DNA of 47,798 nucleotides from Candidatus Aminicenantes bacterium UBA4820 (GTDB lineage Bacteria; Acidobacteriota; UBA4820), in assembly GCA_002402325.1 (NCBI GenBank), contig DHFQ01000128.1:1-47798 (forward strand), in the 5' to 3' direction. Below are positions 9,652 to 47,658 of the stretch, one piece after another (positions within the stretch are counted from its first letter, which is position 1; each line of letters begins with the position of its first letter). Both the position numbers and the translations under genes were made by a program. Below the pieces are notes generated by a model, which was not told where the DNA came from, did no database searches, and worked only from the letters and a program-made list of their open reading frames with translations.

Positions 9652-10669
9652 ACTTTTCGAATCACCATTTTATGAGAAATTGGATGAAAACAAATTAAGG
9701 TGCACCCTTTGTAACCACAGATGCGTAATAGTCGAAAATAAGAAGGGGATTTGCAATGTAAGAAAAAATGTTGGAGGAAAACTCTACTCTTTAAATAAGA
9801 ATCTATTTATTGCAATAAATATTGACCCAATTGAAAAAAAACCCCTATTTCATTTTTTACCCGGCTCTTTTTCCTTTTCACTTGCAACTATGGGGTGCAA
9901 CTTTAAATGTCGTTTCTGTCAAAACCATGAGATAAGCCAGATTGAGGAAAGGGAGGTAGTGGGAAATTTCTTTGAATCTAAGGAGATTGTTGAAAAGGCA
10001 ATAGAAGAGGGGTGCAGTTCAATTTCTTACACCTACACCGAGCCAACAATCTTTTTTGAAACTGCTTACGAAATAGGAGTTCTTGCCAGGAATAAAGGAT
10101 TAAAAAATATTTTTGTTACAAACGGATATATTTCAAAAGAAGCAACGCTAAAAGCAAAAGAGTTTCTTAATGCGGCGAATGTTGATTTAAAAAGTTTTAA
10201 GGAGGAGACCTACAAGAAATACTGCGGGGCAACTTTAAAAGGGGTTCTTGAAGGAATAGACAATCTTCTTGAAGCGGGATGCTTTATTGAAATAACTACT
10301 CTTATAGTGCCGGGAGTCAATGATGGTGAGGATGAATTAAGGGCAATAGCAAAGTTCATTGCTTCCCGTTCAAAAGAAATTCCGTGGCATATTTCAAGAT
10401 TCTTCCCAAATTATAAGATGGAAAACTGCCATTCAACGCCACTTCCAACCATTGAGAAAGCATTTAAAATAGGCAAGGAAGAAGGGCTTGAGTATGTTTA
10501 TAAAGGAAATGTATGGGGAGAGGGAGAAAACACCTATTGTCCCGAATGCGGTGCTCTTTTGGTTGAAAGAAGGGGATTTGAAGTTTTAAAAAATTTGGTT
10601 GATAATGGAATCTGTTTTAGTTGTGGTAAAAAGATAAATGGTTTCTTTAGGAGGCAAAATGGCTTTTAA
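9635..10669 (+). CDS. AmmeMemoRadiSam system radical SAM enzyme
   Basis: N-terminal C-x2-C-x-x-C...GICNVRKN, DPIEKKPLFHF and the GCNFKCRFCQNHEIS radical-SAM cluster motif. Confidence 0.8.
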   Translation: MSTRSELFESPFYEKLDENKLRCTLCNHRCVIVENKKGICNVRKNVGGKLYSLNKNLFIAINIDPIEKKPLFHFLPGSFSFSLATMGCNFKCRFCQNHEISQIEEREVVGNFFESKEIVEKAIEEGCSSISYTYTEPTIFFETAYEIGVLARNKGLKNIFVTNGYISKEATLKAKEFLNAANVDLKSFKEETYKKYCGATLKGVLEGIDNLLEAGCFIEITTLIVPGVNDGEDELRAIAKFIASRSKEIPWHISRFFPNYKMENCHSTPLPTIEKAFKIGKEEGLEYVYKGNVWGEGENTYCPECGALLVERRGFEVLKNLVDNGICFSCGKKINGFFRRQNGF

Positions 10670-21552: not shown

Positions 21553-23130
21553 ATGGCGTATCTTTCCTTTAAAATTGGGGGAGAAGATCAAAAATTTGAA
21601 ATTAAAAAAGAGATTATTTCTATTGGTAGAATGGAGGGAAACGACCTCATCCTTTTTGATCCAACTATTTCAAGAAGGCATTGTGAGTTAGAAAAAAATG
21701 GGAAGAGTTATATTTTAAAAGATTTAAATTCAAGAAATGGATTATTCGTTAATGGAGAAAAGATATCAACAAGGGAAGTTAAGGATGGGGATGAGATAAA
21801 GGTGGGGAGTTTTCCATTAAAATTTAAAATGGGTGAACCAGATGATGTTTTGATTTCTGATAGTCAGATGTCTATGGCTGAAGGGACTATTGTCCGCTCT
21901 CTTGATGAAATTCAGGCGATGTTAAAGGGGGAGATAAAAGAATCAAAGATAGAGGAAGCAAAGACAATAGAGTTTGATAGAATTCAAAAGAATCAAAAGA
22001 TACTTTCAAGTCTCAATGAGGTTTCAAGGCAGTTGATTGAGGCGCAGAGTTATGAGGAGGTTCTTGAGAAGGTCATAGAAATCATTTTTGAGCAAGTTCA
22101 AGCCCAAAGAGGCGTCATCCTTTTAACAGATGAAAAAAGTGGCGAATTGGAACCAAAAATAATAAAACAGGCGGACAAAAGTGGTGAACAGATTAGAATC
22201 AGTCAAACAATAGCAAAAAAGTCCTTTAACGATAAGGTTGCAATTTTATGCCACGATGCTCAGACGGATGAAAGATTTCAGGCAGGTGCATCAATAAGGA
22301 TGCTTGGAATAAGATCTGCATTGTGTGTTCCATTGCTTGTTGGAGATAAGGCAATTGGGCTAATTTATGTTGATACTCCTTTGAGGGTAAAGGCTTATGG
22401 AAACTATGAACTTGAACTTCTTTCTGCCCTTTCGGGACTTTGTGGAGTTGCCATTCGTCAGGCGTCATTGAGAGCGAAACTTGAAGAGGAAAAGATGGCA
22501 AAATCAAGGCTTGAAAGATACCATTCACCGAGCGTTTTAAAAAGAATTCTTGAATCAATAGAAAAGGCTGGAAGCCTTGTTGCTAAAGAGGTTGAAGCGA
22601 CTGTTTTATTTGCTGATTTATGCAGTTTTACTTCAATGAGTGAAAATATGGAGCCGGGTAAAGTTGCAGAAATTTTAAATGGTTTTTTATCAAGGATGAC
22701 CGATGTCATATTTGATAATGAAGGAACTCTTGATAAATTTATAGGGGATTGTGTGATGGCAGTCTTTGGTGCACCTGTTGAAAGAGATGACCACGCCGAA
22801 TGTGCGATAAAGTGTGCGATTGAAATGAAAAATGAACTTATGGAATACAATAAAAATGGAGACATTCAACTGAACTTTAGAGTTGGGATAAATTCAGGAA
22901 AAATGGTTGCAGGAGATATTGGAAGCCCGAAAAGAATGGAATACACAGTTCTTGGAGAATCTGTCAACCTTGCTTCAAGGTTACAATCTTATGTTGCAAA
23001 ACCGGGTCAAATTGTAATTGGACAAAGAAGTTATGAGTTGACAAAAGGTAAATTTAAAACCATAGAGATTGGCGGTGTTCAGGTAAAAGGTATCACTAAA
23101 ACGCTCACTGCTTATGAGGTGATTGGATGA
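21553..23130 (+). CDS. FHA-GAF-class III adenylate/guanylate cyclase
   Basis: N-terminal FHA domain (GRMEGNDLILFDPTISRRHCEL...NSRNGLFVNG), central GAF-like region and a cyclase domain (ATVLFADLCSFTSMSE...KFIGDCVMAVFGAP...GESVNLASRL). Confidence 0.85.
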   Translation: MAYLSFKIGGEDQKFEIKKEIISIGRMEGNDLILFDPTISRRHCELEKNGKSYILKDLNSRNGLFVNGEKISTREVKDGDEIKVGSFPLKFKMGEPDDVLISDSQMSMAEGTIVRSLDEIQAMLKGEIKESKIEEAKTIEFDRIQKNQKILSSLNEVSRQLIEAQSYEEVLEKVIEIIFEQVQAQRGVILLTDEKSGELEPKIIKQADKSGEQIRISQTIAKKSFNDKVAILCHDAQTDERFQAGASIRMLGIRSALCVPLLVGDKAIGLIYVDTPLRVKAYGNYELELLSALSGLCGVAIRQASLRAKLEEEKMAKSRLERYHSPSVLKRILESIEKAGSLVAKEVEATVLFADLCSFTSMSENMEPGKVAEILNGFLSRMTDVIFDNEGTLDKFIGDCVMAVFGAPVERDDHAECAIKCAIEMKNELMEYNKNGDIQLNFRVGINSGKMVAGDIGSPKRMEYTVLGESVNLASRLQSYVAKPGQIVIGQRSYELTKGKFKTIEIGGVQVKGITKTLTAYEVIG

Positions 23131-26567: not shown

Positions 26568-27770
26568 ATGGGAATAATATCAATTGAAAAGTCGCTTGAA
26601 TTAATAAAGAAGGGAAAAATGGTTATCCTTGTTGATGATGAAAACAGGGAAAACGAGGGTGATCTCTTTGTTCCAGCAGAAAAAGTTACTCCAAAGGCAA
26701 TAGCATTTATGGCAACTTACGGAAGGGGACTTATATGCCTTTCAATGACAGGGCAAAGGCTCGATGAACTTGAAATTCCCCTTATGGTTGAAAAAAACAC
26801 ATCAAGTTTTCAAACAGCCTTCTGTGTTTCAATTGAGGCAAAGGATAAAACAACAACAGGTATTTCTGCCTATGACAGGGCTGCGACAATACTTACAGCG
26901 ATTGACCCGAAAACAAAATCATCTGATTTGTTAAGACCAGGCCACATTTTTCCTTTGAGAGCAAAAGAGGGAGGAGTTTTAAGAAGGCCGGGGCAAACAG
27001 AAGCCTCAATAGACCTCTGTCGACTTGCAGGGCTTTATCCTGCGGGTGTCATTTGCGAGATAATGAAAGATGATGGGACTATGGCAAGGCTTCCTGATTT
27101 ACTAAAATTTTCAAAAAAGCACGGGGTTGATATTGTTTTAATCGCTGATTTAATAAAATATAGATTGAAAAGGGAAACACTCGTCAAAAGGATAGCGGAG
27201 CCGAAACTTCCCACAAAATATGGTGAGTTCAAAATCATCGCCTATCAATCTGAACTTTGCGAAAAACCAAACCTTGCTCTTGTTATGGGAAAATGGAAGA
27301 AGGGGGAGGAGGTTCTTGTGAGGATGCACTCAGAATGCCTCACCGGTGATGCTCTCCATTCTCTCAGGTGTGATTGCGGAGCCCAACTTGAATATGCTAT
27401 GAAAAAAATTTCTGAAAATAAAAAGGGTGCGATTGTATATTTGAGGCAGGAGGGAAGGGGAATTGGGCTTTTAAACAAACTTAAAGCCTATGAACTTCAG
27501 GACAAAGGGCTTGACACAGTTGAAGCAAATGAGGCGCTTGGATTTAAGCCTGATGAAAGAGATTATGGAATAGGTGCTCAAATTTTAAGAGATCTGGATA
27601 TTCACAGAGCAAAATTGCTTACAAACAATCCAAAAAAACTTGCAGCCCTTTCTGGTTTTGGAATTGAAATCACAGGGACAGAGCCAATTGAAATTACTCC
27701 AAACCCATTAAACTTTAGATATTTAAAGACAAAAAAAGAGAAGTTGGGACACACACTCAAGAAGGTTTAG
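26568..27770 (+). CDS. ribBA: bifunctional 3,4-dihydroxy-2-butanone-4-phosphate synthase / GTP cyclohydrolase II
   Basis: DDENRENEGDL (DHBP synthase) and HSECLTGDALHSLRCDCG zinc motif (GCH II). 400 aa. Confidence 0.9.
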   Translation: MGIISIEKSLELIKKGKMVILVDDENRENEGDLFVPAEKVTPKAIAFMATYGRGLICLSMTGQRLDELEIPLMVEKNTSSFQTAFCVSIEAKDKTTTGISAYDRAATILTAIDPKTKSSDLLRPGHIFPLRAKEGGVLRRPGQTEASIDLCRLAGLYPAGVICEIMKDDGTMARLPDLLKFSKKHGVDIVLIADLIKYRLKRETLVKRIAEPKLPTKYGEFKIIAYQSELCEKPNLALVMGKWKKGEEVLVRMHSECLTGDALHSLRCDCGAQLEYAMKKISENKKGAIVYLRQEGRGIGLLNKLKAYELQDKGLDTVEANEALGFKPDERDYGIGAQILRDLDIHRAKLLTNNPKKLAALSGFGIEITGTEPIEITPNPLNFRYLKTKKEKLGHTLKKV

Positions 27771-30700
27771 AAGAATAGATTCTCCTTAAATTTTCTCCTT
27801 TAATTTCTTTTGAAGAATTGAAGGAATCGTCGTTTAAAAAGATCACATCTCCCGTTGAAGTTCCTAAAATTATTGTCTTTCCATCATTTGAATTAAGCAC
27901 TGATGAGGGAATAGAAGGATGAGGAAGCAAGAGTGTTTTATAAGAGTACAAGATTTTATCTTCATCTCCCCTTTTAATTTCAATTCTTATAACCTCCCCA
28001 CCTGTTGCAAAGTAGCAAACATTATTTTCAGGACCTTTAGAAATTGAGAAAGAAAGAGGATTTGTCGTGATTTGTGGCAATAAAAAAAGTTCCTCATTTT
28101 TAAGGTCAAAAGCATAAAGTGAGAATATATCATAAGAACCTAAAATCATCACAACTTCTAAGGAAGGAATATAGGCAAAAGATATTCCCGCCTGAGATGG
28201 GATTTCAAAAATTTTTGAAGAAAATTTATCTCCCTCTTTTTTGAGATAGATCAGTGTACTATTCCAACTGCCTATCAAAAAGCGATTTTCATTTTCATCA
28301 ACCCAGAATCCGTGAAGCGAAAGTTTTTTATTCAAAAGGTCGCCTGTTGAAATTGTTATCTCCTCTTTTAGATTTGGCAATCCCCACGACTTTAATTTCC
28401 CGTCTGAAGAAGATGACCACAACTTATCTTCCCTTTTTGAAATTTGAAGGTAGTTAATCAAAAAATCGTGTGCGGTGCTTCTAAATTGAAGGTCTAAAGA
28501 GGGAAGAGAAAATAGAGCGATTGTTTTATCATCAGATGAGGTTATTAAATTGTTTTCTGTTGTAACCATTGATGTTACGCCAAGTGTGTGTAACTCCTTT
28601 GACTTTACATCTCCATTTTTATCTATTGAATAGATTTTTCCATCGCTACTTCCTGCAAACACAAGGTTGTTTTTCTTATCTTCAGCAAGGCACCAGATTT
28701 CACTTTTGCAAACCTTTACGATCTTTGATGGCGATGATGTTTTTAATGAATATCTGATTATCGAAGAGTTCTGCTTTGATAAAGATAGAATTCCATCAGG
28801 TGAAAAAGAAATTGAATCAAAGGGGACATTTTCTTTTGATTGGTAGAGAAGTTTTCCATCATCAAGATCAAAAATTTTAAGCCCATAATTTCCAGCAGAG
28901 GCAAAAAGTTTTACTTCTGAAAGTACAAGCAAGTCCATTGTCTCACCTGATATAGCAATTTCTTTTGTTTCCTGTTTTAAAAAATCATAAAGAACAATTC
29001 TATCAAACCACCCCCAGATTGACAGAATATTAAGAGCATCATTAGTCATTATTCCATTTATTCTTTCAGAAAATTGTTTTTGATAAACTTTTTTTCCTGT
29101 TTCAAATTCGAAGGAGACAACATCGCTTCCTTTTACTGCTGAAAAATATTTATCACTAAGAAAATAGCGCCCTTTTTCAATCCCGTCATCTTTGATTGTC
29201 GTCATTGGCTTTTCTGGGTGATTTATTAAAGAATAGAGAGAGACTTCATCCTTTTTGATTAGTGCCAATGTTCTATTTGATTTTGATATAATCACTTTTT
29301 CTATTACCATTCCTTTAAGGTCAAAGATGGGGATTTCATTTCCAGAGTCTAAGGACTTCTCATAAATTCTTTTTCCATCAAATAAAATTGGATTGTTGAT
29401 TGAGGAAGTACAAATCAATTCTTCACCAGTTTTAAGTTGTATTGGTGTAGGGACTTTTGAATCCAACTTCATCAGATAAAGAGAACTTGAACCTCTTATT
29501 AAAATATCTTTCTCAACATTTGAAGAGAGAATTTCAATTGAATCCGCTGGCGCTTCCCACTCTCCCGTTTTTTCAAAGGGATTTGATTGATTCTCCCAAT
29601 TTTCTTTTTTCTTTTTTGAAAGAAAAAATATAGAAAGTAGAAGCAGAGCGAAAATCAAAACAACTGTCGCAGGGACAAAAACTTTTTTGAAATTATTGTT
29701 TTTAACCTTCTTGCTTTTCTCTGCCTCTTTTGTCTTTTTTGATTCTCTTGAAAGTTGTGAAATTACCTCACTTCCAGATGGCGTGGAGATTGTAGGCGAA
29801 TAACCTGAAGTTTCTTTCAAAATTATATTTTTCATCGTATCAAGATTTGATGGTTCTTTCAGTTTCAACTCTTCGATGAATTGTGAGACACTCTCAAATC
29901 TCTCCTCCGGGTGAACAGATGTTGCTTTTTGGATAGCATTCACAATATTTTCAGGAGTATTTTCGGGAAGAGAGGCGCCTCCTACAGGAAAATTAATATC
30001 CTTTGCAACAATTTCGCCGAGTGTTTTTCCTTCTCTTAGAGATTTTTTAGAGATAATTTCAGCGACTATCAAAGCGAAGGCGTACTGGTCAGTTTTAGGA
30101 GATACTCCTTTTGAAAGTAGTTGTTCGGGTGCGATGTAGTTTATTGTTCCGATTATGTTCCCTTCGCCTGTCAATGTTTTTGACGAATCTTCGGAAAGAA
30201 CCTTTGCTATTCCAAAATCAAGGATTTTTGGTGAAACCCTGTTTTCTGAAATTGTCAAAAGAATGTTTTCGGGCTTTAAGTCCCTGTGAATGACATTTTT
30301 ACTATGGGCGTAATCAAGTGCTGATGCTATTTCTTTAAGAATGGTTGAAAAATCATCAACATTAAAAATCTTTGAATGGTGCAATAAAAGAGTTCTTAAT
30401 GAGATTCCCTCAACAAATTCCATAGCGTAGTAGGCAGAGCCGTAGTCGCTTACATCAAAATCGTAAATGCCAACGATATTTGGATGCTTTAAGGTGGCAA
30501 GGAGTTGAGCCTCTCTCAAAAATCTTTCAAGGAAAGTTGATTCCTGTTCAAGAGAGGGAATGATCATTTTTAATGCTGATAGTCTATTTAAAATTGAATG
30601 TCTTGCAAGATAGACAATTCCCATACCGCCATAACCCAGAACACCCTCTATCTTGTATTTCCCAAAGGATTTTCCAACAAAGAAATCGGGTTCTTTTAAC

Positions 30701-30783
30701 TCAAGGCTTGAGGAGCAATAGTTACATTTAGTTCCTTTAATCGAGATTTTATTGCACTGTTTGCAGTATTTAAAATCAATCAT
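27757..30783 (-). CDS. Ser/Thr protein kinase with N-terminal zinc ribbon, one TM segment and a large C-terminal WD40-like beta-propeller region
   Basis: CKQCN...CNYC ribbon, GYGGMGIVYLARH...ALK, HRDLKPENIL, DFGIAK and APE motifs. One TM segment (VPATVVLIFALLLLSIFFL). WD-like repeats (GSSDGKIYSID, SSDDKTIALFS, SSSDGKLKSWG). The start could instead be ATG 30954 (see findings). Confidence 0.8.
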   Translation of the reverse strand: MIDFKYCKQCNKISIKGTKCNYCSSSLELKEPDFFVGKSFGKYKIEGVLGYGGMGIVYLARHSILNRLSALKMIIPSLEQESTFLERFLREAQLLATLKHPNIVGIYDFDVSDYGSAYYAMEFVEGISLRTLLLHHSKIFNVDDFSTILKEIASALDYAHSKNVIHRDLKPENILLTISENRVSPKILDFGIAKVLSEDSSKTLTGEGNIIGTINYIAPEQLLSKGVSPKTDQYAFALIVAEIISKKSLREGKTLGEIVAKDINFPVGGASLPENTPENIVNAIQKATSVHPEERFESVSQFIEELKLKEPSNLDTMKNIILKETSGYSPTISTPSGSEVISQLSRESKKTKEAEKSKKVKNNNFKKVFVPATVVLIFALLLLSIFFLSKKKKENWENQSNPFEKTGEWEAPADSIEILSSNVEKDILIRGSSSLYLMKLDSKVPTPIQLKTGEELICTSSINNPILFDGKRIYEKSLDSGNEIPIFDLKGMVIEKVIISKSNRTLALIKKDEVSLYSLINHPEKPMTTIKDDGIEKGRYFLSDKYFSAVKGSDVVSFEFETGKKVYQKQFSERINGIMTNDALNILSIWGWFDRIVLYDFLKQETKEIAISGETMDLLVLSEVKLFASAGNYGLKIFDLDDGKLLYQSKENVPFDSISFSPDGILSLSKQNSSIIRYSLKTSSPSKIVKVCKSEIWCLAEDKKNNLVFAGSSDGKIYSIDKNGDVKSKELHTLGVTSMVTTENNLITSSDDKTIALFSLPSLDLQFRSTAHDFLINYLQISKREDKLWSSSSDGKLKSWGLPNLKEEITISTGDLLNKKLSLHGFWVDENENRFLIGSWNSTLIYLKKEGDKFSSKIFEIPSQAGISFAYIPSLEVVMILGSYDIFSLYAFDLKNEELFLLPQITTNPLSFSISKGPENNVCYFATGGEVIRIEIKRGDEDKILYSYKTLLLPHPSIPSSVLNSNDGKTIILGTSTGDVIFLNDDSFNSSKEIKGENLRRIYSSKPS

Positions 30784-30813
30784 CTTTCTACCAAAAAAAA
30801 GTCTATCATAAAG

Positions 30814-30845
30814 TTGAAAAATTTTCTTGAAAAAACTACAACTAT
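30814..30845 (+). repeat. direct repeat copy A (degenerate copy of the 32173 promoter)
   Basis: TTGAAAAATTTTCTTGAAAAAACTA is identical over 25 nt to 32173-32197. 30 of 32 positions match over the extended span. Confidence 0.8.
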
Positions 30846-31007
30846 TTCCTTTAAGGCAAAACAAAATTGGAGAATTTGATTGGTTGATGTAAAATAAAAT
30901 CTGTGGAATATAGATGCATAAAGAAATGGCAGCAACATATTCAAAATACAACATTATGAGCGTCCTCGTGCTAAGAGAATTTCTCTTTCAAGTTTAAAGG
31001 CTAATTT

Positions 31008-39519: not shown

Positions 39520-40998
39520 ATGAAACTATCAATTGAAAAGAAAGATTATTCAAAGGTAAAAAGCGAAGCGGTTGTTTTAGGCGTTTTTGAAAAATTCTCT
39601 TTTCCAAAGGAGCCATTTTGTAAGACAATTGAAGAAGAGGCAAAAAAAGCTCGATTTGATGGTAATGTTGGAGAAAGTTTTTTTCTTAAAGGAACTCATT
39701 TTGATGGAAAGGTTGTTTTAGTTCTGGGGCTCGGGAAAGAGGATGAATATTCCATAGAAAAAATCAGGGTAGCGCTATCTAATGCAGTGAGGAAATTAAA
39801 GGAAAGATTCATTGAGAGTGCTGTTTTTGCTATACACCCTGAGAAATCAAAAGATGATTTTAAAGAGACAATTTCAACCATTGCAGAGGTTATTGTCCTT
39901 ACAAATAGGAAGTTTGACCGTTACATTACGGATAGGAAAAAACTATTCTTTGGCTTAAATGAAGCAATAATTGTGATAAAAGAGTTAAACAAAAAGGCTG
40001 AGGAAGGGATAAAGAAAGGTAAAACTTTGTCAGAGGCTGTTGTTTTTGCGCGGGACCTCATAACCCTTCCCTCAAATGAAGTAACCCCGACCTATCTCGC
40101 TCAAGAGGCTATGAGTATTGCAAAAGCATACAACTTCAAAGCTAAAATATTAAATGAAAAAGAGTGTAAGAAGTTGGGTATGAATGCCTTCCTTACGGTT
40201 GCGCAGGGCTCAAAAAATCAGCCAAAGTTCATTCATCTTACATATCAGAACGAGAATGCAAAAAAAAGTATCGGCATAATTGGAAAGGGGCTTACCTTTG
40301 ACAGCGGAGGCATATCACTAAAGCCAGCACAGGGAATGGGTGCAATGAAAAGCGATATGTCAGGAGCGGCGGCTGTTCTTGCAACTATGAAGGCAATTGG
40401 GGAGTTAAAACCAGAAGTCAATGTTGAGATGATCATTGCCGCCTGTGAAAATATGCCATCAGGTAAAGCTTACAGGCCCGGGGACATAATTTACACTATG
40501 AGTGGAAAGTCAATTGAAGTTCAAAATACCGATGCAGAGGGAAGATTGACCCTTGCAGATGCAATCACCTACACACAAAAACAAAAAGTTGATGAAATAA
40601 TAGACCTTGCAACTTTAACAGGGGCGTGTATGATTGCCCTTGGACCTGATATTGCCGGGATAATGGGAAACGATCAAAATTTGATAAACTCTCTAATTTC
40701 AATCTCAAAAAAGACGGGAGATTCATTATGGCAACTTCCTCTTGAAGAAGGCTATTTCAGATTTATAAAATCTCCCATCGCTGATATTTGCAACAATTCA
40801 AGTGTAAGATGGGGAGGAGCGATAACTGCGGGGCTATTTTTAAAGTTTTTTGTTGAGAAAAAAATAAAGTGGGCGCACATTGATATAGCAGGTCCAGCAT
40901 ATAGAGATGATGACTTAAATGAAAATCACAAAGCAGAGGGCGCAGGATTTGGAGTGAGGTTACTTGTAAATTACCTCTTAGGGCAAAAAAAGGTTTGA
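39520..40998 (+). CDS. pepA: leucyl aminopeptidase (M17)
   Basis: GKGLTFDSGGISLKP, MKSDMSGAAAV and NTDAEGRLTLADA signatures. 492 aa. Confidence 0.9.
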   Translation: MKLSIEKKDYSKVKSEAVVLGVFEKFSFPKEPFCKTIEEEAKKARFDGNVGESFFLKGTHFDGKVVLVLGLGKEDEYSIEKIRVALSNAVRKLKERFIESAVFAIHPEKSKDDFKETISTIAEVIVLTNRKFDRYITDRKKLFFGLNEAIIVIKELNKKAEEGIKKGKTLSEAVVFARDLITLPSNEVTPTYLAQEAMSIAKAYNFKAKILNEKECKKLGMNAFLTVAQGSKNQPKFIHLTYQNENAKKSIGIIGKGLTFDSGGISLKPAQGMGAMKSDMSGAAAVLATMKAIGELKPEVNVEMIIAACENMPSGKAYRPGDIIYTMSGKSIEVQNTDAEGRLTLADAITYTQKQKVDEIIDLATLTGACMIALGPDIAGIMGNDQNLINSLISISKKTGDSLWQLPLEEGYFRFIKSPIADICNNSSVRWGGAITAGLFLKFFVEKKIKWAHIDIAGPAYRDDDLNENHKAEGAGFGVRLLVNYLLGQKKV

Positions 40999-41018
40999 GA
41001 TAAGTCCTTAGACTTATC
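40999..41018 (+). terminator. perfect 8-bp hairpin just after the pepA stop (possible weak terminator)
   Basis: GATAAGTC-CTTA-GACTTATC. The U-tract is poor and displaced (ACAATTCGGATTTTGGG). Confidence 0.35.
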
Positions 41019-41067: not shown

Positions 41068-41076
41068 TGTTATACT
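41068..41076 (+). promoter_or_regulatory. extended -10 promoter element (TGTTATACT)
   Basis: TGnTATACT match 28 nt upstream of ATG 41104. GAGGAG at 41091-41096. Confidence 0.45.
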
Positions 41077-41103
41077 CAAATATTAAAATGAGGAGAACAT
41101 ATT

Positions 41104-42201
41104 ATGGACATTGAGAAACCAAAATTTTGTGTCGTTGGAGCAGGCAATGGCGGACTTGCTATGGCAGGACACCTTGCAATAATGAAGTTTGATGTCAGGT
41201 TGTTTAATCGTTCGGAAGACAGGTTAAAGGCAATCAAATTTGAAGGTGGAATAGATGTTACTGGAGAGGTTAATGGATTTGGAAAAATAGAGGTTGCGAC
41301 ATCAGACCCTGAAGAAGCGGTAAAAGATGTTGATGTTATAATGGTAGTTGTTCCTGCAACGGCTCATAAAAACATCGCAAAAATGGTTGGCAAATTCTTG
41401 AAGGATGGACAAATAATAATATTGAATCCCGGTAGGACATTTGGCGCGCTTGAATTTTTTAACACTTTAAAGAGAGAAGGATGTAGTTCAGATGTCATTG
41501 TTGGTGAAACACAAACTTTTTTATATGCAAGCAGAGTAACAGGACCTGGACAGGCTAAAATATTTCGGATAAAAAATTCTGTTCCTCTTGCAACCATAAG
41601 GGCATATAAAATTCCTCAAGCCCTTTCGGTTGTCAGAAAAGCATTTCCGCATTTTGTCTCAGGAGATAGTATTTTTAAGACAAGTTTTGATAATATTGGG
41701 TGTGTTTTTCATCCCGCATTGGTGATGTTAAACGCAGGCTGGATAGAAGACCCAATTGATTTTGAGTTTTACTTGCAAGGAACAACGCTATCAACCAGCA
41801 AGGTGCTTGAAGCCATTGATAAGGAGAGGCTTGAAGTTGCATCAGCACTTGGTTTTAGAGCAATGTCTGCAAGAGAATGGCTTTATTATGCTTATGATGT
41901 TTCAGGAAAAACCCTTTTTGAAGCAATTCACGCAAATCCAGGGTATAGGGGTATAATGGCTCCTCACAACACTAATATGAGGTATATAACTGAAGATGTT
42001 CCTTGTAGTCTCGTTCCTATGGCATCAATAGGAAAGAAATTCAATGTTGAAACTCCTCTCATTGATTCAATAATAAAAATTGCATCTGCTATGCATGAAA
42101 GAGATTACTACAAGGAAGGACGAACCATTGAATCTCTTGGAATAGAGGATTTGAATTTAAAGCAGTTAAGATTAGTTGCCATTGGAGAAGACCCAAAATG
42201 A
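41104..42201 (+). CDS. NAD(P)-dependent octopine/nopaline (opine) dehydrogenase family protein
   Basis: N-terminal VVGAGNGGLAMAGHLA dinucleotide fold. The length of 365 aa and the overall pattern fit the opine dehydrogenase family. Confidence 0.7.
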   Translation: MDIEKPKFCVVGAGNGGLAMAGHLAIMKFDVRLFNRSEDRLKAIKFEGGIDVTGEVNGFGKIEVATSDPEEAVKDVDVIMVVVPATAHKNIAKMVGKFLKDGQIIILNPGRTFGALEFFNTLKREGCSSDVIVGETQTFLYASRVTGPGQAKIFRIKNSVPLATIRAYKIPQALSVVRKAFPHFVSGDSIFKTSFDNIGCVFHPALVMLNAGWIEDPIDFEFYLQGTTLSTSKVLEAIDKERLEVASALGFRAMSAREWLYYAYDVSGKTLFEAIHANPGYRGIMAPHNTNMRYITEDVPCSLVPMASIGKKFNVETPLIDSIIKIASAMHERDYYKEGRTIESLGIEDLNLKQLRLVAIGEDPK

Positions 42202-43829
42202 AAAAAGTAATACTTGGTTGTGCCTTAGGACAATGTGTCCATATAGCGGGTTTAAGCCATTTTCTGAGGTTATGTGAAGAAGAGGGATACAGAACGGTTA
42301 ACTTAGGCCCTGCTACAAAAGTTAAGAAATTTCTTGAACAAATTGAAATTATAAGACCCGAAGTTTGTGCGGTTTCTTTTAGACTTACACCAGAAGATTT
42401 TGAACCCTTGCTAAAAGAGTTTATTTCTGGATTTGAAAAACTCCCATATAAACCAATCCTTTTTCTTGGAGGGACTCCACCTGTTGCCGAGTTGGCGAAG
42501 AAGTATAAAATTTTTGATCAGATTTTTGATGGTGAAGAGACTCTTGAAGAGACGAAAGATAGAATTAAAGGGAAAAGACGAACAAGAAGTAAAAAGAGCT
42601 ACCCCTCAACTCTTCTTGAAAGGATTGAATATTGTTATCCTTTGCCTTTAATAAGACACCATTATGGAGAACCTGATTTACTTCGCACTGTAAAAGGGGC
42701 AAGAAAAATAGCCAGATCTGAAGTATTGGATGTGTTGTCTTTAGGACCAGACCAGAATTCTCAAGAATTCTTTTTTTCTCCAGAAAGGATGAACCCAACG
42801 CAAGAGGGCGCAGGGGGAGTGCCTTTGAGAAAAAAGGAAGATTTGAAAGCAATTTACGAGGCAACAAGATGTGGGAATTATCCGCTTTTAAGGTGCTATA
42901 GCGGGACTAATGATCTTATTAAATGGGCAGATATGCTCATTGAAACTATAGACATTGCCTGGGGTGCTGTTCCCTTGTGCTTCTATAGTTCTCTTGATGG
43001 AAGAAGTAAAAAAGGGCTAATAGAAGCAATAGAAGAGAAACAGAAAGCAATAAAGCACTACGCAGAAAGAAAAATTCCCGTTGAAGTCAATGAATCACAC
43101 CAGTGGAGTTTAAGAGATGCACACGATTCGCTTGCTGTTGCAACCGCATTCCTTTCCGCATACAACGCCAAAAAATTGGGCGTAGAGACCTTTATTCTTC
43201 AGATGATGTTTAATACGCCCCCTTCAACTGCCCCACACATGGATCTGGCAAAAATGTGGGCAAAACTTGAAATGGTTACATCCCTTGAAGATGAAAGATT
43301 TAAAGTTTTAAGAGAAGTGAGGGCCGGTATTGCAAGCCTTCCTTCTCAACCTGATATTGCAAAAGGACATCTTTCTGCGTCAACAGTTTATTCAATGTTT
43401 TTAAAGCCACATATCCTTCATATAGTTGGTTTTAGTGAGGGTTACAAGATTGTTAATCCAGAAATTTTAATAGAAAGTTGCAGAATAGGAAGGGGGGCAG
43501 TAAATCTTTCAATAAGTTGTGAATTGGATTTTAAAAACGATAATAAAATTTTCAAAAGAAAGAACCACCTTATAAACGAGGCTCAAGTGATCCTTGAGGC
43601 AATGAAAATTATAGGTAAAGATAGTGAAGACCCTCTTATATCCTCATCAAATCTTACAAAAGCAATCGAGCTCGGAATTCTTGATACGCCACATTTTAAA
43701 GGATTGAGAGGATTAAAAGGTGATGTCCTTACATCTTGCATAAACGGAGGCTGGGATGCGATTAACCCCAATACCAGAGAGCCTATATTAGAAAAAGAGA
43801 GGCTTAAGAATCTGGGCATAGATATCTAA
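42198..43829 (+). CDS. uncharacterised fusion protein: N-terminal cobalamin-binding-like domain (CxHxxG variant) plus a ~400-aa C-terminal domain of unknown function
   Basis: KKVILGCALGQCVHIAGL...GYRTVNLG...EVCAVS...ILFLGGT aligns by eye with glutamate mutase S / B12-binding domains. There is no radical-SAM CxxxCxxC motif. ATGA overlap with the upstream gene. Confidence 0.5.
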   Translation: MKKVILGCALGQCVHIAGLSHFLRLCEEEGYRTVNLGPATKVKKFLEQIEIIRPEVCAVSFRLTPEDFEPLLKEFISGFEKLPYKPILFLGGTPPVAELAKKYKIFDQIFDGEETLEETKDRIKGKRRTRSKKSYPSTLLERIEYCYPLPLIRHHYGEPDLLRTVKGARKIARSEVLDVLSLGPDQNSQEFFFSPERMNPTQEGAGGVPLRKKEDLKAIYEATRCGNYPLLRCYSGTNDLIKWADMLIETIDIAWGAVPLCFYSSLDGRSKKGLIEAIEEKQKAIKHYAERKIPVEVNESHQWSLRDAHDSLAVATAFLSAYNAKKLGVETFILQMMFNTPPSTAPHMDLAKMWAKLEMVTSLEDERFKVLREVRAGIASLPSQPDIAKGHLSASTVYSMFLKPHILHIVGFSEGYKIVNPEILIESCRIGRGAVNLSISCELDFKNDNKIFKRKNHLINEAQVILEAMKIIGKDSEDPLISSSNLTKAIELGILDTPHFKGLRGLKGDVLTSCINGGWDAINPNTREPILEKERLKNLGIDI

Positions 43830-43841
43830 AAGGAGGCAAGA

Positions 43842-45362
43842 TTGTGTGGAATAGCAGGAATTTTTGGAAAAGGCGAAATTGAAAAAAAAGAGATAACAAG
43901 AATGCTCTCAAAATTGAGACATAGAGGGCCTGATGAGAGGGATGTGTTGAAGGTTTCCCCGATAGGTTGGCTTGGCCATACAAGGCTTTCCATTATAGAT
44001 TTAAAAAAGGGGAAACAGCCTATAAGTAACGAAGATGGAAAAGTTGCGATTGTTTTTAATGGAGAAATATACAATTTTAAAAAATTGAGAAAGGAACTTG
44101 AACCACGGCACAAATTTAAAACAGAAAGTGATGCGGAAGTAGTACTCCATCTTTACGAGGATTTTGGAGAAGAGAGTTTTAAAATGCTTGACGGTATGTT
44201 TGCAATATTAATGACCGGACCCAAAAATTTTATTCTTGTGCGTGATCCCATTGGGATTAAACCTTTATACTATGGTAATAAAGGAAACAGGATATATGTA
44301 GCATCAGAGCTCAAAGCCTTTCCACATCCTATGGATGGGATAAAATCGCTTAAACCTGGACACTATATGATCGGAGGAGAGACTAAACTTTTTGAAAATA
44401 TTCTTGATTCTTCTATACAAATTTATGATCTGAATACAGAAAAAATTAAATCAGATTTGATTTTTCTTCTTGAAGAGGCTGTAAATAAAAGGCTGATAGC
44501 AGATGTACCCGTTGGTGTTTTTCTTTCTGGTGGATTTGATAGCAGTCTTGTAGCCTCTATAATGAAAAAGAAAATAAAATGTTTGCATTCCTTTACTGCA
44601 GGAATGAAAGATGCCCCCGATTTGAAGATGGCTTCAGAATTGGCTGATTTTCTTAAAACAGAACATCATCAATTAATCTACAATAAAAGGGAAATGTTAA
44701 AGGCTTTACCTGAAGTAATTTATCATCTTGAATCATTTGATTCGCCAATCATTAGATCCGCAATACCGATGTATTTTATTTCTAAAATTGCCTCTGAATA
44801 TGTAAAGGTAACCTTAAGTGGAGAAGGAGCTGATGAACTTTTTGCAGGTTATTCTTATCTAAAAAGGTTTAAAGGAAATAGACTAAGGAAAGAACTAAAC
44901 AAAGTAATAAGGTCTTTAGAAAATACAAATCTGCAAAGGGGAGACAGAATTGCAATGGCTTTTGGACTTGAAGTTAGAGTCCCATTTCTCGACAAAAGGC
45001 TTTTGAAATACACTTTGAGAATACCTCCATCCCTTCTTGAATCTGGGGCAAATAGACAGGAAAAACATCTTTTAAGAGAAACTTTTAAAAATTATTTACC
45101 GGAAACTGTTCTTAAGAGGCATAAAATGAAGTTTTCAATCGGGGCAGGCTCGTCGGATCAGTTATTTGAGGAAAGTAGAAAACGCATTACAGACAAGGAA
45201 TTTGAGAATAACAAAATGCTTCCAGATGGGTCTTTATTGCGTTCAAAGGAGGAATATTACTATTATAAAATTTTTAAAGATATTTTTGGAGATACAATTC
45301 CGTTGAACTTGGTTGGAAGGACAGTGGATAAAAGCGCAGGAACAGAGAAGGAAAATGGTTAA
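43842..45362 (+). CDS. asnB: asparagine synthetase (glutamine-hydrolysing) family amidotransferase
   Basis: TTG start immediately followed by the Cys nucleophile (M)CGIAGIF. SGGFDSS PP-loop. AGGAGG lies 5 nt upstream. The physiological substrate is uncertain given the gene context. Confidence 0.75.
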   Translation: MCGIAGIFGKGEIEKKEITRMLSKLRHRGPDERDVLKVSPIGWLGHTRLSIIDLKKGKQPISNEDGKVAIVFNGEIYNFKKLRKELEPRHKFKTESDAEVVLHLYEDFGEESFKMLDGMFAILMTGPKNFILVRDPIGIKPLYYGNKGNRIYVASELKAFPHPMDGIKSLKPGHYMIGGETKLFENILDSSIQIYDLNTEKIKSDLIFLLEEAVNKRLIADVPVGVFLSGGFDSSLVASIMKKKIKCLHSFTAGMKDAPDLKMASELADFLKTEHHQLIYNKREMLKALPEVIYHLESFDSPIIRSAIPMYFISKIASEYVKVTLSGEGADELFAGYSYLKRFKGNRLRKELNKVIRSLENTNLQRGDRIAMAFGLEVRVPFLDKRLLKYTLRIPPSLLESGANRQEKHLLRETFKNYLPETVLKRHKMKFSIGAGSSDQLFEESRKRITDKEFENNKMLPDGSLLRSKEEYYYYKIFKDIFGDTIPLNLVGRTVDKSAGTEKENG

Positions 45363-45963
45363 TAATATAGTTAGTTCGCTAATACACGATTTTTTAATCC
45401 TTTTTGGAATTGTGAATATCATTGGAAACATACCTCACATATCAGTCTTGACCTCTGATCTGTCTAAAAGGGATAAAAAGAGCATTTTTTTTATCTCTTC
45501 TCTAACTTCTTTTGCCTTAGTTCTATTATTTGCGCTTTGTGGAAATTTTATTCTTATAAATGTCTTTGATATAACTTTCGCCTCTTTTAAAGTTGCCGGT
45601 GGAATTATAGTGTTTTTAGTCGCTGTAAGAGGGGTCGTTCTTGGTCCCTCTAAGGCTATTGCTACTTTTCAGGAGGAAGAGAAATCACAGAGGTTTTTTT
45701 CAATTGTTTTCCCTTTCCTTGTTGGACCAGGAACAATGGTAACTACAATCCTTTTAATGCAGGCAAGCGGCAAATTACACACTTCTTTAGTCGTTTTCTT
45801 TGTCTATATTACATCTTTTGTAATTCTTTTAACAATTCCAATAATTGAAAAACTTGTTGGAAAATTAATTATGACTATGATTTCAAGGATTCTTTACATC
45901 TTTATTGCAGCGAAGGCTGTAAAATTTATAATTTCAGGGTTGAAAGAATGTTTTGCGGGTTAA
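45355..45963 (+). CDS. MarC family (UPF0056) integral membrane protein
   Basis: About 200 aa with 6 TM segments and an N-terminal FGIVNIIGNIP motif. Start set at ATG 45355 (MVNNIV), overlapping the asnB-like stop. Confidence 0.7.
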   Translation: MVNNIVSSLIHDFLILFGIVNIIGNIPHISVLTSDLSKRDKKSIFFISSLTSFALVLLFALCGNFILINVFDITFASFKVAGGIIVFLVAVRGVVLGPSKAIATFQEEEKSQRFFSIVFPFLVGPGTMVTTILLMQASGKLHTSLVVFFVYITSFVILLTIPIIEKLVGKLIMTMISRILYIFIAAKAVKFIISGLKECFAG

Positions 45964-45966
45964 AAA

Positions 45967-47658
45967 ATGAAATCCAGGACATTTATTGAACATTTGAAAA
46001 ATGCCTTTATTGCTTTTTTAGATATTATTTCAAAGGATATCGGGATTGAACCGCACAGCCGTTTTAAAATTTACACTTTTTTATATGAAGAGACAGACAT
46101 AACAAATTTCTTTTACTGGATTTCTCTTCTTTGTTCAGTAGGTATAGCCACATTGGGGCTGGCACTTAATAGCTCCGCTGTAATAATAGGTGCGATGCTC
46201 CTCTCACCACTTATGGGTCCCATAATTGCGCTTGGGCTATCAATGACAATTGGCGATTTTTATCTCGGGATGAGAGCGGTTGTTAATCTGATTTTATCCA
46301 TAGTTATTTCTCTTATTTTTTCCTCTTTAATAACATTTTTTCTTCCATTTCAAATAGAAACTTCAGAAGTTCTCTTAAGAACAAGACCCAACACTCTTGA
46401 TTTAGCTGTTGCTCTACTGTGTGGTTTAATTGGTTCTATATCTGTTGCAAGAGCGCCTTCTAAGGGTTTTGCAACAACAATTCCTGGAGTTGCCATTGCA
46501 GTTGCATTGATACCACCTCTTTGTTCCATAGGGTTCGGAATAGGAATCGGTTTCAAATGGAATATAATGGGGGGGGCATTCCTCCTTTTTCTGACCAATT
46601 TGGTTTCAATAGTGTTTACATCTATATTGGTTTTTCTATCATTAAGAATGGGAGCGGAGGAAGAAATAGAAACAATTCGTTCTTTTGTGCAGGGTAGGGC
46701 AGAGAAAAACAGACTTTATATGGCATTTATGGGTAAAAAACATTTTCAAATATTTAAGAAAGTGGGGAATTTAAAAAACAGGTTGATATTTGTTGGTATT
46801 GCATTACTTGTTCTAATTATTCCTTTAAGCATAATATTGAATCAGATTAAAAGAGAGATAGTCATAAAAAAAGAGACACAAAAAGCAATATCACGGTTCC
46901 TTCAAGATGAATCCATCCTTTCTAAGGAAATAGTGATAGACAAAAATAAAGTTAATCTTCACTTTTCAATTTTAACTGGAGAAGAATCTGTTGGGACAAA
47001 TATAAAGAAGATGGAAGACTATTTGAAAATAAAACTGAATGAAAATGTAAGTGTTTCATACATAGAAGTTCCAAACAAAGCGATGCTCTTAATGGCAAAA
47101 GAAAAAGTGCAGCCAATGCCTCCTGATTTGAAAGCATTATCAAATGAAATTCATTCAAGATATTTAGAAAAAGTGAAAAATCTTTTACCAGAATCTCGAA
47201 AAAATGAACTTATCAATCTATCTTTGTTTTACAATGAAAAAACGAGGAAACCCAACATTCAGGGCGTTTTCCTCACAGATCAGTTAATCACTGAAAATGA
47301 AAAAGATATACTTAAAAAAGCAATATCTTCGATTTTCTCTGAAGATATAGAGATGTCCATCATTTCTCTTCCTTCTCAAATTGATATAGTTAAATTAAGA
47401 AAAAAAATTGAAGAGATTGACATTTCTGATATAAATTCAAAAATATCCATTTATAAATTTTATATTTACAACCCTACGCTTTTGCTTGAGATTCATACTA
47501 AAAGCGGGCAAAAGACATCTAAAAGCATTAATGAAAAGATACAATATCTTTCAGAATACTTATCTGACACTCTTTCGATACCCTGTGAAATTGGAGCATT
47601 TAAAGAAGACTCTCAATCGAAAGAAACTTTTGTTCTTATAAAGGTTAAGAAAGGGTAA
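45967..47658 (+). CDS. DUF389 domain membrane protein with a long soluble C-terminal extension
   Basis: IGAMLLSPLMGPIIALGLS and GVAIAVALIPPLCSIGFG motifs typical of DUF389. The remaining ~270 aa are Lys/Glu-rich and non-membrane. Confidence 0.7.
   Translation: MKSRTFIEHLKNAFIAFLDIISKDIGIEPHSRFKIYTFLYEETDITNFFYWISLLCSVGIATLGLALNSSAVIIGAMLLSPLMGPIIALGLSMTIGDFYLGMRAVVNLILSIVISLIFSSLITFFLPFQIETSEVLLRTRPNTLDLAVALLCGLIGSISVARAPSKGFATTIPGVAIAVALIPPLCSIGFGIGIGFKWNIMGGAFLLFLTNLVSIVFTSILVFLSLRMGAEEEIETIRSFVQGRAEKNRLYMAFMGKKHFQIFKKVGNLKNRLIFVGIALLVLIIPLSIILNQIKREIVIKKETQKAISRFLQDESILSKEIVIDKNKVNLHFSILTGEESVGTNIKKMEDYLKIKLNENVSVSYIEVPNKAMLLMAKEKVQPMPPDLKALSNEIHSRYLEKVKNLLPESRKNELINLSLFYNEKTRKPNIQGVFLTDQLITENEKDILKKAISSIFSEDIEMSIISLPSQIDIVKLRKKIEEIDISDINSKISIYKFYIYNPTLLLEIHTKSGQKTSKSINEKIQYLSEYLSDTLSIPCEIGAFKEDSQSKETFVLIKVKKG

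Follow-up and report, generated by a model that had tools for sequence, protein, structure and literature searches.

Organization of the five-gene cassette

The window studied here is a 47,798-nucleotide stretch of DNA from Candidatus Aminicenantes bacterium UBA4820 (contig DHFQ01000128.1, assembly GCA_002402325.1), and it carries a cassette of five plus-strand genes (41104-47658) whose products are, in order, an opine dehydrogenase (ODH), a vitamin B12-binding domain fused to a TIM barrel, a glutamine-dependent amide synthetase of the AsnB family, and two membrane proteins of the MarC and DUF389 families. The open reading frame (ORF) table and the raw sequence give junctions of -4, +12, -8 and +3 nt between consecutive genes, and an independent gene caller run on the 80-kb source metagenome contig returned the identical five genes, beyond which the genes lie on the opposite strand. 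An initial annotation, made from the sequence alone, had described these genes and junctions together with an upstream hairpin and an extended -10 element, all of which are present in the raw sequence at the positions it gave. The protein families that it had proposed were likewise recovered: Octopine_DH, Asn_synthase plus GATase_7, MarC and DUF389 were matched by Pfam or NCBIfam models, and the B12-binding domain, which scores below the Pfam threshold, is supported by profile and fold comparisons.

All elements of the locus lie on the plus strand. The stop codon of pepA (40996-40998) borders on a perfect 8-bp hairpin (GATAAGTC-CTTA-GACTTATC, 40999-41018) that can be read from the sequence; this hairpin has no T-run on its 3' side, was not called by the terminator scan, and may be a weak terminator or a boundary element. 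A candidate extended -10 element (TGtTATACT, 41068-41076) follows, the promoter scan handling only sites of the -35/-10 type; this element and the hairpin are each a single consensus match. The Shine-Dalgarno-like GAGGAG (41090-41095) is placed 8 nt ahead of the ATG of gene 1 (41104-42201; 365 residues), which shares 4 nt (ATGA) with gene 2 (42198-43829). The sequence AGGAGG (43832-43837), a Shine-Dalgarno site by inspection, precedes gene 3 (43842-45362; 506 residues), which opens with TTG-TGT (Met-Cys) at 43842. Gene 4 (45355-45963; 202 residues) overlaps gene 3 by 8 nt, its ATG at 45355 being also the start chosen in the independent gene call, and gene 5 (45967-47658; 563 residues, with a long C-terminal extension) begins 3 nt past gene 4.

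To the initial annotation the five genes had further looked like one translationally coupled unit. We counted 23 promoter-like sites within the unit, compared with 22.3 ± 4.9 in shuffled sequences, and 7 terminator-like sites, compared with 4.5 ± 2.2; in the terminator scan, none of the latter fell at an intergenic junction. A single transcription unit is thus plausible, since internal promoter-like and terminator-like sites are not enriched over the shuffles. The neighbours of the cassette in the window are ordinary chromosomal genes, such as dxs, pepA, ribBA and a PBP1-type transglycosylase/transpeptidase gene, and the cassette does not differ in GC content (0.34-0.39) from the remaining window, which gives no hint of a recent horizontal transfer. 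In the window and in eight further loci having long leaders upstream of the ODH gene, Rfam scans returned no riboswitch or T-box.

Conservation of the cassette across phyla

A scan of 185,579 species, each represented by one genome, yielded 339 relatives of gene 2, and the best 80 loci were analysed; the gene 2 family comprises over 3,700 sequence clusters at 90% identity. Of 73 testable loci, 72 have the ODH gene directly upstream of the gene 2 homologue in the same orientation, and in 62 of 74 the homologue is directly followed by an AsnB-like gene. A MarC gene was found within 2.6 kb downstream of the AsnB-like gene in 22 of 71 loci, and a DUF389 gene occurs near the cassette in 11 of the 80, at variable positions, being placed as in the window only in its closest relatives. 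The full five-gene order is common to the two closest relatives (L001 and L002) only, and therefore the universal core consists solely of the ODH and the B12-domain protein, referred to hereafter as the mutase; the amidating gene is usual, MarC is present in about one third of the loci, and the position of DUF389 is lineage-specific. The trio of ODH, B12-domain and AsnB-like genes persists as neighbours across many phyla, in support of the initial interpretation, and of the coupled five-gene unit described at the outset, the part that is universal is the ODH-mutase core.

The loci belong to Acidobacteriota, Nitrospirota, Hydrogenedentota, Ignavibacteria, Bacteroidales, Clostridia, Chloroflexi, Aminicenantes, Armatimonadota, candidate phyla and a single Methanomicrobia archaeon. 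The gene 2 family has a second branch, found in Halanaerobiales (Halothermothrix orenii among them), Anoxybacter fermentans, Chloroflexi, Poribacteria, and Heimdall-, Thor- and Promethearchaeota; in this branch the ODH gene adjoins the mutase gene too, the order being reversed in the loci of Asgard archaea and Chloroflexi. Carriers of the family are mostly anaerobes, and some are archaea; those in culture include Rosettibacter primus (NZ_JAYKGK01), H. orenii and A. fermentans (CP016379). In our judgment it is very probable that the cassette is a real, conserved and as yet unassigned enzyme module.

Some loci of the second branch show surroundings of their own. In four of Halanaerobiales type (L082, L083, L086 and L087, from H. 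orenii, A. fermentans and metagenome-assembled genomes, MAGs), the gene for EF-G, the ODH-mutase pair and a gene for a Crp/Fnr-family regulator follow one another, and in the Halanaerobiales MAGs, genes for MgtE and for a dehydrogenase of the isocitrate/isopropylmalate type also precede the pair. In a Heimdallarchaeaceae MAG (L085), the gene directly downstream of the mutase (9581-10633) encodes a 350-residue protein lacking NCBIfam or precomputed Pfam matches, and corrinoid methyltransferase genes (MTTB, Met_synt_B12, S-methyl_trans) lie nearby.

Gene 1 encodes an opine dehydrogenase with a predicted NADP-type cofactor site

The product of gene 1 matches the Octopine_DH model PF02317 (8e-47, 159.5 bits; gathering score 30) and aligns at residues 3-356, that is, over its full length, to N-(1-D-carboxyethyl)-L-norvaline dehydrogenase (CENDH; PDB 1bg6) of Arthrobacter sp. 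1C (3e-78, ~45% identity), with which it shares the two-domain architecture and the catalytic His202, Arg292 and Asp297 (CENDH numbering). The Rossmann motif GAGNGG occupies residues 12-17. Among the cassette-linked ODH orthologues, His202, Arg292, Glu296 and Asp297 are invariant (70/70), and the catalytic residues are kept in gene 1. The group departs from CENDH at the end of strand beta-2, where CENDH has the acidic, NAD-specifying Asp34: this position is Asn in 68 of the 70 orthologues and is followed by Arg in 69, and then by Gly, Ser or Thr. By the usual rule for Rossmann folds, this pattern predicts NADPH as the cofactor. A site of NADP type would therefore suggest that the enzyme works in the reductive, biosynthetic direction, in which gene 1 would condense an amino acid with a 2-oxo acid. 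Unlike that of CENDH, the gene is translationally coupled to the gene of a B12 enzyme.

Gene 2 encodes a putative isomerase of a new adenosylcobalamin subfamily

Two domains make up the product of gene 2, namely a predicted B12-binding Rossmann domain (residues ~1-125) and a TIM barrel resembling that of GlmE, the large subunit of glutamate mutase (residues ~140-543). Against the Pfam B12-binding model the protein scores 24.7 bits, under the gathering score of 32.1; its N-terminal 125 residues match the B12 domains of corrinoid proteins by profile comparison, with His15 sitting on the cobalt-ligand His. The B12 motifs read C13-x-H15-x-x-G18, S60..L63 and G91-G92, and His15, Gly18, Ser60..Leu63 and Gly91-Gly92 are kept across the family. 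Cys13, which replaces the canonical Asp (residues 13-18 are encoded at 42234-42251 of the window), is invariant in 30 close homologues and occurs in at least 90% of 33 diverse members. A Cys-His pair at this signature position is not known to us from any other B12 enzyme; Cys13 could tune or redox-gate the lower ligand.

As of June 2026, NCBIfam held no model for gene 2, and PDB relatives found by sequence covered the B12 domain only. An AlphaFold (AF2) model, built from a 30-sequence alignment, had a confidence (pLDDT) of 88, and Foldseek put its C-terminal 400 residues nearest to the GlmE chains 6h9e_B and 1cb7_B (E 1.6e-16, probability 1.0, TM score 0.57-0.65), followed by ornithine and lysine aminomutases (weaker, 1e-10) and then by acyl-CoA mutases. 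The Pfam model Met_asp_mut_E (PF06368) gave no match for the window protein; certain homologues score 25-27.5 bits with it, around its gathering score of 26.6.

Direct hmmsearch and hhalign comparisons of gene 2 with the single GlmE sequence were abandoned, as they aligned the C-terminal helices alone and family profiles were needed on both sides. The GlmE sequence was recovered from the PDB search output, profiles were built for both families, and their alignment spanned 366 columns with a weak E-value of 0.045. Invariant scaffold residues correspond in this weak alignment (GlmE/gene 2): Gly68/Gly157, Asp89/Asp178, Asp96/Asp185, Asn143/Asn227, Pro145/Pro229, Gly151-Thr152/Gly236-Thr237, Asp154/Asp239, Trp167/Trp255 and Tyr177/Tyr263. 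From the GlmE structures, we take the residues that bind glutamate to be Arg66, Arg100, Arg149, Glu171 and Tyr181. At these positions gene 2 has, by the same alignment (E 0.045), His155, no basic residue, Tyr234, Pro259 and Asp267, respectively, and Pro259 and Asp267 are invariant. Because all five glutamate-binding residues appear to be replaced while the scaffold residues are common to both families, gene 2 does not look like a glutamate mutase; its sequence points to a new, putative subfamily of adenosylcobalamin-dependent isomerases, with the GlmE fold and probably the GlmE type of chemistry acting on another substrate. The initial annotation had left room for gene 2 to fall into a well-characterised stand-alone family, and no such family was found, given the missing NCBIfam model and a GlmE-like fold with replaced substrate residues. 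Six conserved arginines in the barrel region (Arg153, Arg211, Arg232, Arg269, Arg306 and Arg375) suggest a polyanionic substrate.

Glutamate mutase (GlmS/GlmE; PDB 1cb7, 1i9c, 6h9e) combines a B12 Rossmann domain bearing a His ligand with a TIM barrel, as gene 2 is predicted to do, and its C-terminal helical region can be aligned to that of gene 2. Unlike glutamate mutase, gene 2 encodes a single chain with the B12 domain at its N-terminus, at ~16% identity and with CxHxxG instead of DxHxxG; the gene was never found beside methylaspartase, and is nearly always beside an opine dehydrogenase. In three proteins of 826-1266 residues (P0150, P0151 and P0154), a barrel distantly related to that of gene 2 is fused to the Pfam MutL domain (PF13941), which we take to be the family that includes GlmL/MutL, a putative glutamate mutase reactivase encoded in glutamate mutase operons; these fused paralogues thus support radical adenosylcobalamin chemistry for the superfamily. 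A separate group of paralogues of about 620 residues (P0161, P0174 and others) was also observed.

The pyridoxal 5'-phosphate-dependent B12 aminomutases (lysine 5,6- and ornithine 4,5-) were considered as an identity for gene 2 and rejected, as the pyridoxal-phosphate-binding Lys of their Rossmann domain has no counterpart (no invariant or near-invariant Lys occurs in residues 1-130 of the gene 2 family) and their structural likeness is below that of GlmE. In public databases, members of the family carry the names "methionine synthase", "methylmalonyl-CoA mutase cobalamin-binding subunit", "glutamate mutase epsilon subunit" and "hypothetical protein", none of which is backed by the residue analysis.

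Gene 3 encodes an AsnB-like amide synthetase with an altered substrate pocket

Gene 3 carries the Pfam domains Asn_synthase and GATase_7, has E. coli AsnB (PDB 1ct9; 1.6e-89) as its best PDB match, and scores 542 bits with NF006949, the NCBIfam AsnB equivalog model (cut-off 499). It shares with E. coli AsnB the N-terminal nucleophile (Ntn) glutaminase domain, complete in its site residues (Cys2 as nucleophile, Arg49, Leu50, Asn74, Gly75, Glu76, Asp98), an SGGFDS PP-loop, and the adenylation residues Ser346, Gly347, Glu348, Asp351, Glu352, Tyr357, Arg387 and Lys449 (E. coli numbering). It differs at Asp384 (Asn in gene 3), Lys376 (Val), Leu232 (Phe) and a Thr-Thr pair of the beta-aspartyl-AMP site (Pro-Ile); the first three belong to the published list of beta-aspartyl-AMP contacts of E. 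coli AsnB (PMC4659947).

The 52 cassette-linked AsnB-like proteins fall into three forms. Type A, which includes gene 3, comprises 13 proteins of ~487-507 residues that start with MCGI; type B comprises 36 proteins of ~445 residues that start with MAGIAGI or MSGIAGI and have a truncated glutaminase domain; and three full-length proteins, intermediate between both, have lost the Cys. The full glutamine site is present in 13 of 13 type A proteins and absent in the 39 type B and intermediate ones; unlike E. coli AsnB, gene 3 thus has orthologues in other phyla in which the glutaminase function is lost. On NF006949, further type A proteins score 531, 575 and 550 bits, and type B proteins fail the cut-off (315-387 bits). 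Synthetase-domain identity is 45% between types A and B, and 40% and 35%, respectively, between each type and E. coli AsnB.

In all 52 proteins the PP-loop, Gly347, Glu348, Asp351, Glu352, Tyr357, Arg387 and Lys449 are kept, with Ser or Thr at position 346 (Met in one). Position 384 is never Asp, being Asn in type A and Ala in the others; the Lys at 376 is replaced by Ile, Leu, Val or Ala in every protein; Leu232 is replaced by Phe, Tyr or Trp, save for one Leu; and the Thr-Thr before Arg324 is Pro-Leu or Leu-Leu in most, Pro-Ile being the version of the window protein. The references for this signature were E. coli and human AsnB only. These sequences suggest that the adenylation chemistry is retained and that the amino-acid head group would meet a different pocket; the altered pocket therefore argues against a plain conversion of Asp to Asn, even though type A passes the hidden Markov model of AsnB.

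Two loci depart from the common arrangement. On a Logan contig (SRR21412986; L084, 35-4463), the ODH gene is followed by an 863-residue fusion (P0136) of the mutase with a C-terminal ATP-grasp domain (GSH-S_ATP/RimK-like), and then by a class-I glutamine amidotransferase (Peptidase_C26). The fusion ties the mutase physically to a carboxylate-amine ligase, and the ATP-grasp and glutaminase pair, a non-homologous way of amidating a carboxylate, suggests ammonia transfer. The second locus, in an Anaerolineales MAG (JAFGCG010000191.1; L089, 9896-12821), contains in tandem a 447-residue, Cys-less type B protein (Ala384) and a 497-residue type A protein (Cys2, Asn384); two amidations or a heteromeric enzyme are possible, and the two proteins are perhaps not redundant.

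Other identities of gene 3 were tried and rejected. As a beta-lactam or carbapenam synthetase, it would be at odds with its Cys2 and with its scores (66.7 bits for 1jgt and 58 for 1q15, against 304 for AsnB); with TIGR03104, the model of AsnO, the amidotransferase of N-acetylglutaminylglutamine amide (NAGGN) synthesis, it scores 263 bits against a cut-off of 570; and it remains below the thresholds of the lasso cyclase models.

Membrane proteins and the transporter-rich neighbourhood

Gene 4 matches Pfam MarC (PF01914; 3e-28, 99 bits, gathering score 23.9) and scores 85 bits with TIGR00427, under the cut-off of 99; this integral membrane protein of the MarC/NAAT family is a candidate exporter or importer of an amino-acid-like product or substrate. 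Gene 5 matches DUF389 (PF04087; 1.7e-36).

Channels and ion transporters recur around the cassette. MscS channels were found in 13 loci from about eight independent lineages, on both sides of the ODH-mutase pair (L004), between the mutase and AsnB-like genes (L051), immediately downstream (L073), and beside or inside the cassette (L035); ClC channels were found in 10 loci. Other recurrent neighbours encode Kef-type Na/H exchangers with TrkA domains, a 741-residue AA_permease, CitMHS-type permeases and DUF389 proteins. Three Bacteroidota loci (L053, L064 and L075) encode a GT2-HAD protein with a glycosyltransferase match to mannosylglycerate synthase, and the Anaerolineales locus with tandem AsnB-like genes encodes a Na/Ca exchanger and an MGH1-like glycoside hydrolase as well. 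One neighbour cluster ("c4") was removed from the transporter counts, as shadow ORFs of the ODH gene had been grouped in it with a membrane protein without Pfam match.

The recurrence of MscS, ClC, Kef, AA_permease and mannosylglycerate-related genes, together with the ODH-mutase pair of Halanaerobiales, lends indirect support to an osmotic role. The presence of MscS genes has a parallel in the ectoine operon of Nitrosopumilus (ectABCD-mscS), which includes an mscS gene, and NAGGN is synthesized by an ATP-grasp ligase and an AsnB-like amidotransferase. The proposed logic of the cassette is similar to that of the compatible-solute clusters ablAB, which makes N-epsilon-acetyl-beta-lysine, asnO-ngg (NAGGN) and ectABCD-mscS: a radical rearrangement turns a central amino acid into a non-metabolisable one, amidation neutralises charge, and MscS and ion transporters are encoded nearby. 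The enzyme families differ between the cassette and those clusters, and we know of no compatible-solute pathway that includes an opine dehydrogenase or a B12 enzyme. A precedent for the coupling of a glutamate-mutase-type rearrangement to an ATP-dependent amidation of an aspartate analogue is the supply of the streptolydigin precursor, in which the SlgE1/E2 glutamate mutase reportedly acts first and 3-methylaspartate is then amidated. That pathway differs from the cassette in its canonical two-subunit mutase, in an amidating enzyme of another family, in the lack of an ODH, and in being part of a polyketide synthase-nonribosomal peptide synthetase cluster of Streptomyces.

Proposed pathway

We propose that the cassette makes an opine-type solute that is rearranged and amidated and probably acts as an osmolyte, and we put the probability of this reading as a whole at about 0.5. 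In this scheme, gene 1 would join an amino acid to a 2-oxo acid by an NADPH-dependent reductive condensation, giving an N-(1-carboxyalkyl) amino acid, that is, an opine. Gene 2, presumably B12-dependent in vivo, would then carry out a 1,2 carbon-skeleton shift of the glutamate mutase type by means of an adenosylcobalamin radical; its substrate would not be free glutamate, and would most likely be N-substituted (the opine) and probably polyanionic. Gene 3 would adenylate a carboxylate of the product and convert it to a carboxamide with ammonia from glutamine, thereby lowering the net charge. The resulting small, nitrogen-containing polycarboxylate derivative would accumulate and be moved or released through MarC-type, DUF389 or mechanosensitive-channel proteins, most likely serving as an organic osmolyte or as a counter-ion in ion homeostasis. 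The order of the steps and the osmolyte role are much more tentative than the existence of the module, and we hold each to be somewhat less likely than not. A more specific version is, in our opinion, rather unlikely as it stands: that the opine, and not a free amino acid, is the substrate of the adenosylcobalamin rearrangement, and that amidation yields branched imino-diacid amides used as osmolytes or ion-balancing solutes by uncultured anaerobic bacteria and Asgard archaea. If this is true, the short list of adenosylcobalamin isomerases would gain a new type of reaction, and the compatible solutes a new family.

Several observations weigh against the biosynthesis of an amidated opine-type osmolyte. 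An adjacent amidating gene is missing in ~16% of the loci and in all examined Halanaerobiales and Asgard loci, and therefore amidation is not obligatory. The B12 motif of gene 2 has Cys in place of the usual Asp, with a sub-threshold Pfam B12 score, and the mapping of GlmE residues onto gene 2 is based on a weak profile alignment (E 0.045). Gene 3 exceeds the NCBI AsnB equivalog cut-off and could thus be a true asparagine synthetase, and the tandem of both AsnB-like types in the Anaerolineales MAG is not explained by a simple scheme. The transporter enrichment was set against a rough expectation, namely that a genome has a few MscS genes, and synteny is shared among related genomes. Neither an osmoregulated promoter nor a riboswitch was found in the Rfam scans of the window and the eight loci with long leaders. 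Beyond the prediction of a B12-dependent family in 2009, discussed below, we found no paper on the function of the ODH/B12/AsnB-like association, in a search whose coverage excluded most subscription journals.

Alternative explanations

Coincidence of neighbours would make gene 3 a housekeeping AsnB, the ODH-mutase pair unrelated to it, and the pathway an artefact of gene order. This is what the AsnB equivalog scores of the type A proteins and the best PDB match would lead one to expect, and so would the Halanaerobiales and Asgard archaea, which have the pair without an AsnB-like neighbour. Nevertheless, we consider it improbable. In many phyla the mutase gene is directly followed by an AsnB-like gene (62 of 74 loci), the 52 proteins all differ from E. 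coli AsnB in the site signature of Asp384, Lys376 and Leu232, and a non-homologous ATP-grasp and glutaminase pair takes the place of the AsnB-like protein in one locus (L084). Moreover, 39 of the 52 lack the Cys nucleophile, 36 of these having lost most of the glutaminase domain, and hence they fit poorly with a housekeeping, glutamine-dependent AsnB.

Opine dehydrogenases finish the known opine metallophores, and a product similar to staphylopine or pseudopaline, exported by the MarC or DUF389 protein, would agree with this role, with membrane proteins coupled to the cassette, and with the many invariant arginines in the gene 2 barrel, which make a polycarboxylate product likely. Among the annotated recurrent neighbours, however, we found no nicotianamine-synthase-like protein, histidine racemase, metallophore ABC importer, TonB receptor or Fur/Zur regulator, the recurrent neighbours being ion channels and antiporters instead, and we give this explanation little credence. 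The initial annotation had listed an opine, a metallophore-like compound and a compatible solute as possible products; the neighbourhood favours the compatible solute over the metallophore.

Fermentation is the classic setting of glutamate mutase and the B12 aminomutases. As these enzymes are also the structural matches of gene 2, and as most carriers are anaerobic fermenters, the cassette might instead serve catabolism, with the mutase rearranging an amino acid in the style of the methylaspartate pathway and the ODH acting as a redox sink or cleaving an opine. This would conflict with an ODH cofactor site of NADP and not NAD type, with the anabolic nature of an amidation that consumes ATP, and with the loss of the GlmE substrate residues in gene 2; furthermore, no methylaspartase, mesaconase, citramalate lyase, thiolase or CoA-transferase genes were found with the cassette, and fermentation enzymes were not recurrent among the annotated neighbours of the 80 loci. 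A catabolic role thus appears to us equally implausible.

The AsnB-like protein AsnH amidates D-Asp cross-bridges in the peptidoglycan of Lactococcus, and it offers a precedent for the cassette supplying a building block of the cell wall or of peptides, such as a D- or beta-branched amino acid, to be ligated or amidated afterwards. One mutase homologue is fused to an ATP-grasp domain and another has a weak Peptidase_M15 match, and a D-Ala:D-Ala ligase gene stands beside the pair in some genomes (PMC2667541). We think this very improbable: cell-wall genes, including mur, pbp and ddl, are not recurrent among the annotated neighbours of the 80 loci, the M15 match is below threshold (20.6 against 23.2 bits), and the ODH-mutase pair also occurs in archaea.

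The substrates of beta-lactam synthetase and CarA are secondary amines with a carboxylate at the beta position, a geometry into which an opine made from an aspartate-like moiety would fit, and type B proteins lack the nucleophile as those two enzymes do; a lactam secondary metabolite, formed by Cys-less AsnB-like proteins cyclising the secondary amine of an opine onto its carboxylate, is nonetheless just as improbable, given that the window protein and all of type A keep a complete glutaminase site, that AsnB matches reach 304 (type A) and 169 bits (type B) against 58-70 for beta-lactam synthetase and CarA, that the distribution and sequence conservation resemble core physiology and not a sporadic natural-product cluster, and that the ATP-grasp and glutaminase stand-in of L084 suggests ammonia transfer.

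Relation to earlier work and significance

A survey by Zhang, Rodionov, Gelfand and Gladyshev (BMC Genomics 2009; PMC2667541) predicted a new family of proteins that depend on B12 and left its function open. Found in 11 genomes from four phyla, this family had a distant B12-binding domain at its N-terminus, always adjoined an octopine/nopaline dehydrogenase (pfam02317), and had an asparagine synthase or D-Ala:D-Ala ligase gene nearby in several organisms; no fold, mechanism or role was given (PMC2667541). It matches gene 2 by description and is probably the same family. Since the pairing of the ODH and B12 genes was already published, our finding is not wholly new. The combination of ODH, B12-domain and AsnB-like enzymes, initially taken to be undescribed, is so with regard to function, and its pairing has been in print since 2009 (PMC2667541). 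We did not find reports of the fold assignment, of the loss of GlmE and AsnB substrate residues, of the graded decay of the glutaminase domain, of the non-homologous amidation variant, of the NADPH-type ODH site, or of the channel-rich neighbourhood. A brine-pool preprint that mentions opines proved irrelevant to the cassette.

The adenosylcobalamin-dependent isomerases, which have been studied intensively, make up a small set of about a dozen reactions. The gene 2 family has been without an assigned reaction since it was flagged in 2009, and its relatives are present in 339 species genomes; knowing its substrate would establish a new reaction of B12. Some of the B12 requirement of abundant uncultured anaerobes, among them Bacteroidales, Ignavibacteria, Acidobacteriota, Hydrogenedentota and Asgard archaea, would then be accounted for, and an organic solute so far overlooked in sediments, digesters and hot springs might come to light. 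With regard to annotation, "methionine synthase" and "methylmalonyl-CoA mutase cobalamin-binding subunit" for gene 2, and "asparagine synthase B" for gene 3, are probably misleading names.

Other features of the window

Two further observations concern the remaining window. A 523-residue ORF on the minus strand (3059-4630), located among ordinary genes, has no Pfam match at E ≤ 1e-5. A signalling cluster unrelated to the cassette comprises a protein with TPR and double cyclic nucleotide-binding domains (15447-17243, minus strand), an FHA-GAF-adenylate/guanylate cyclase (21553-23130, plus strand), and a 1065-residue Ser/Thr kinase with a WD40 beta-propeller (27757-30954, minus strand).

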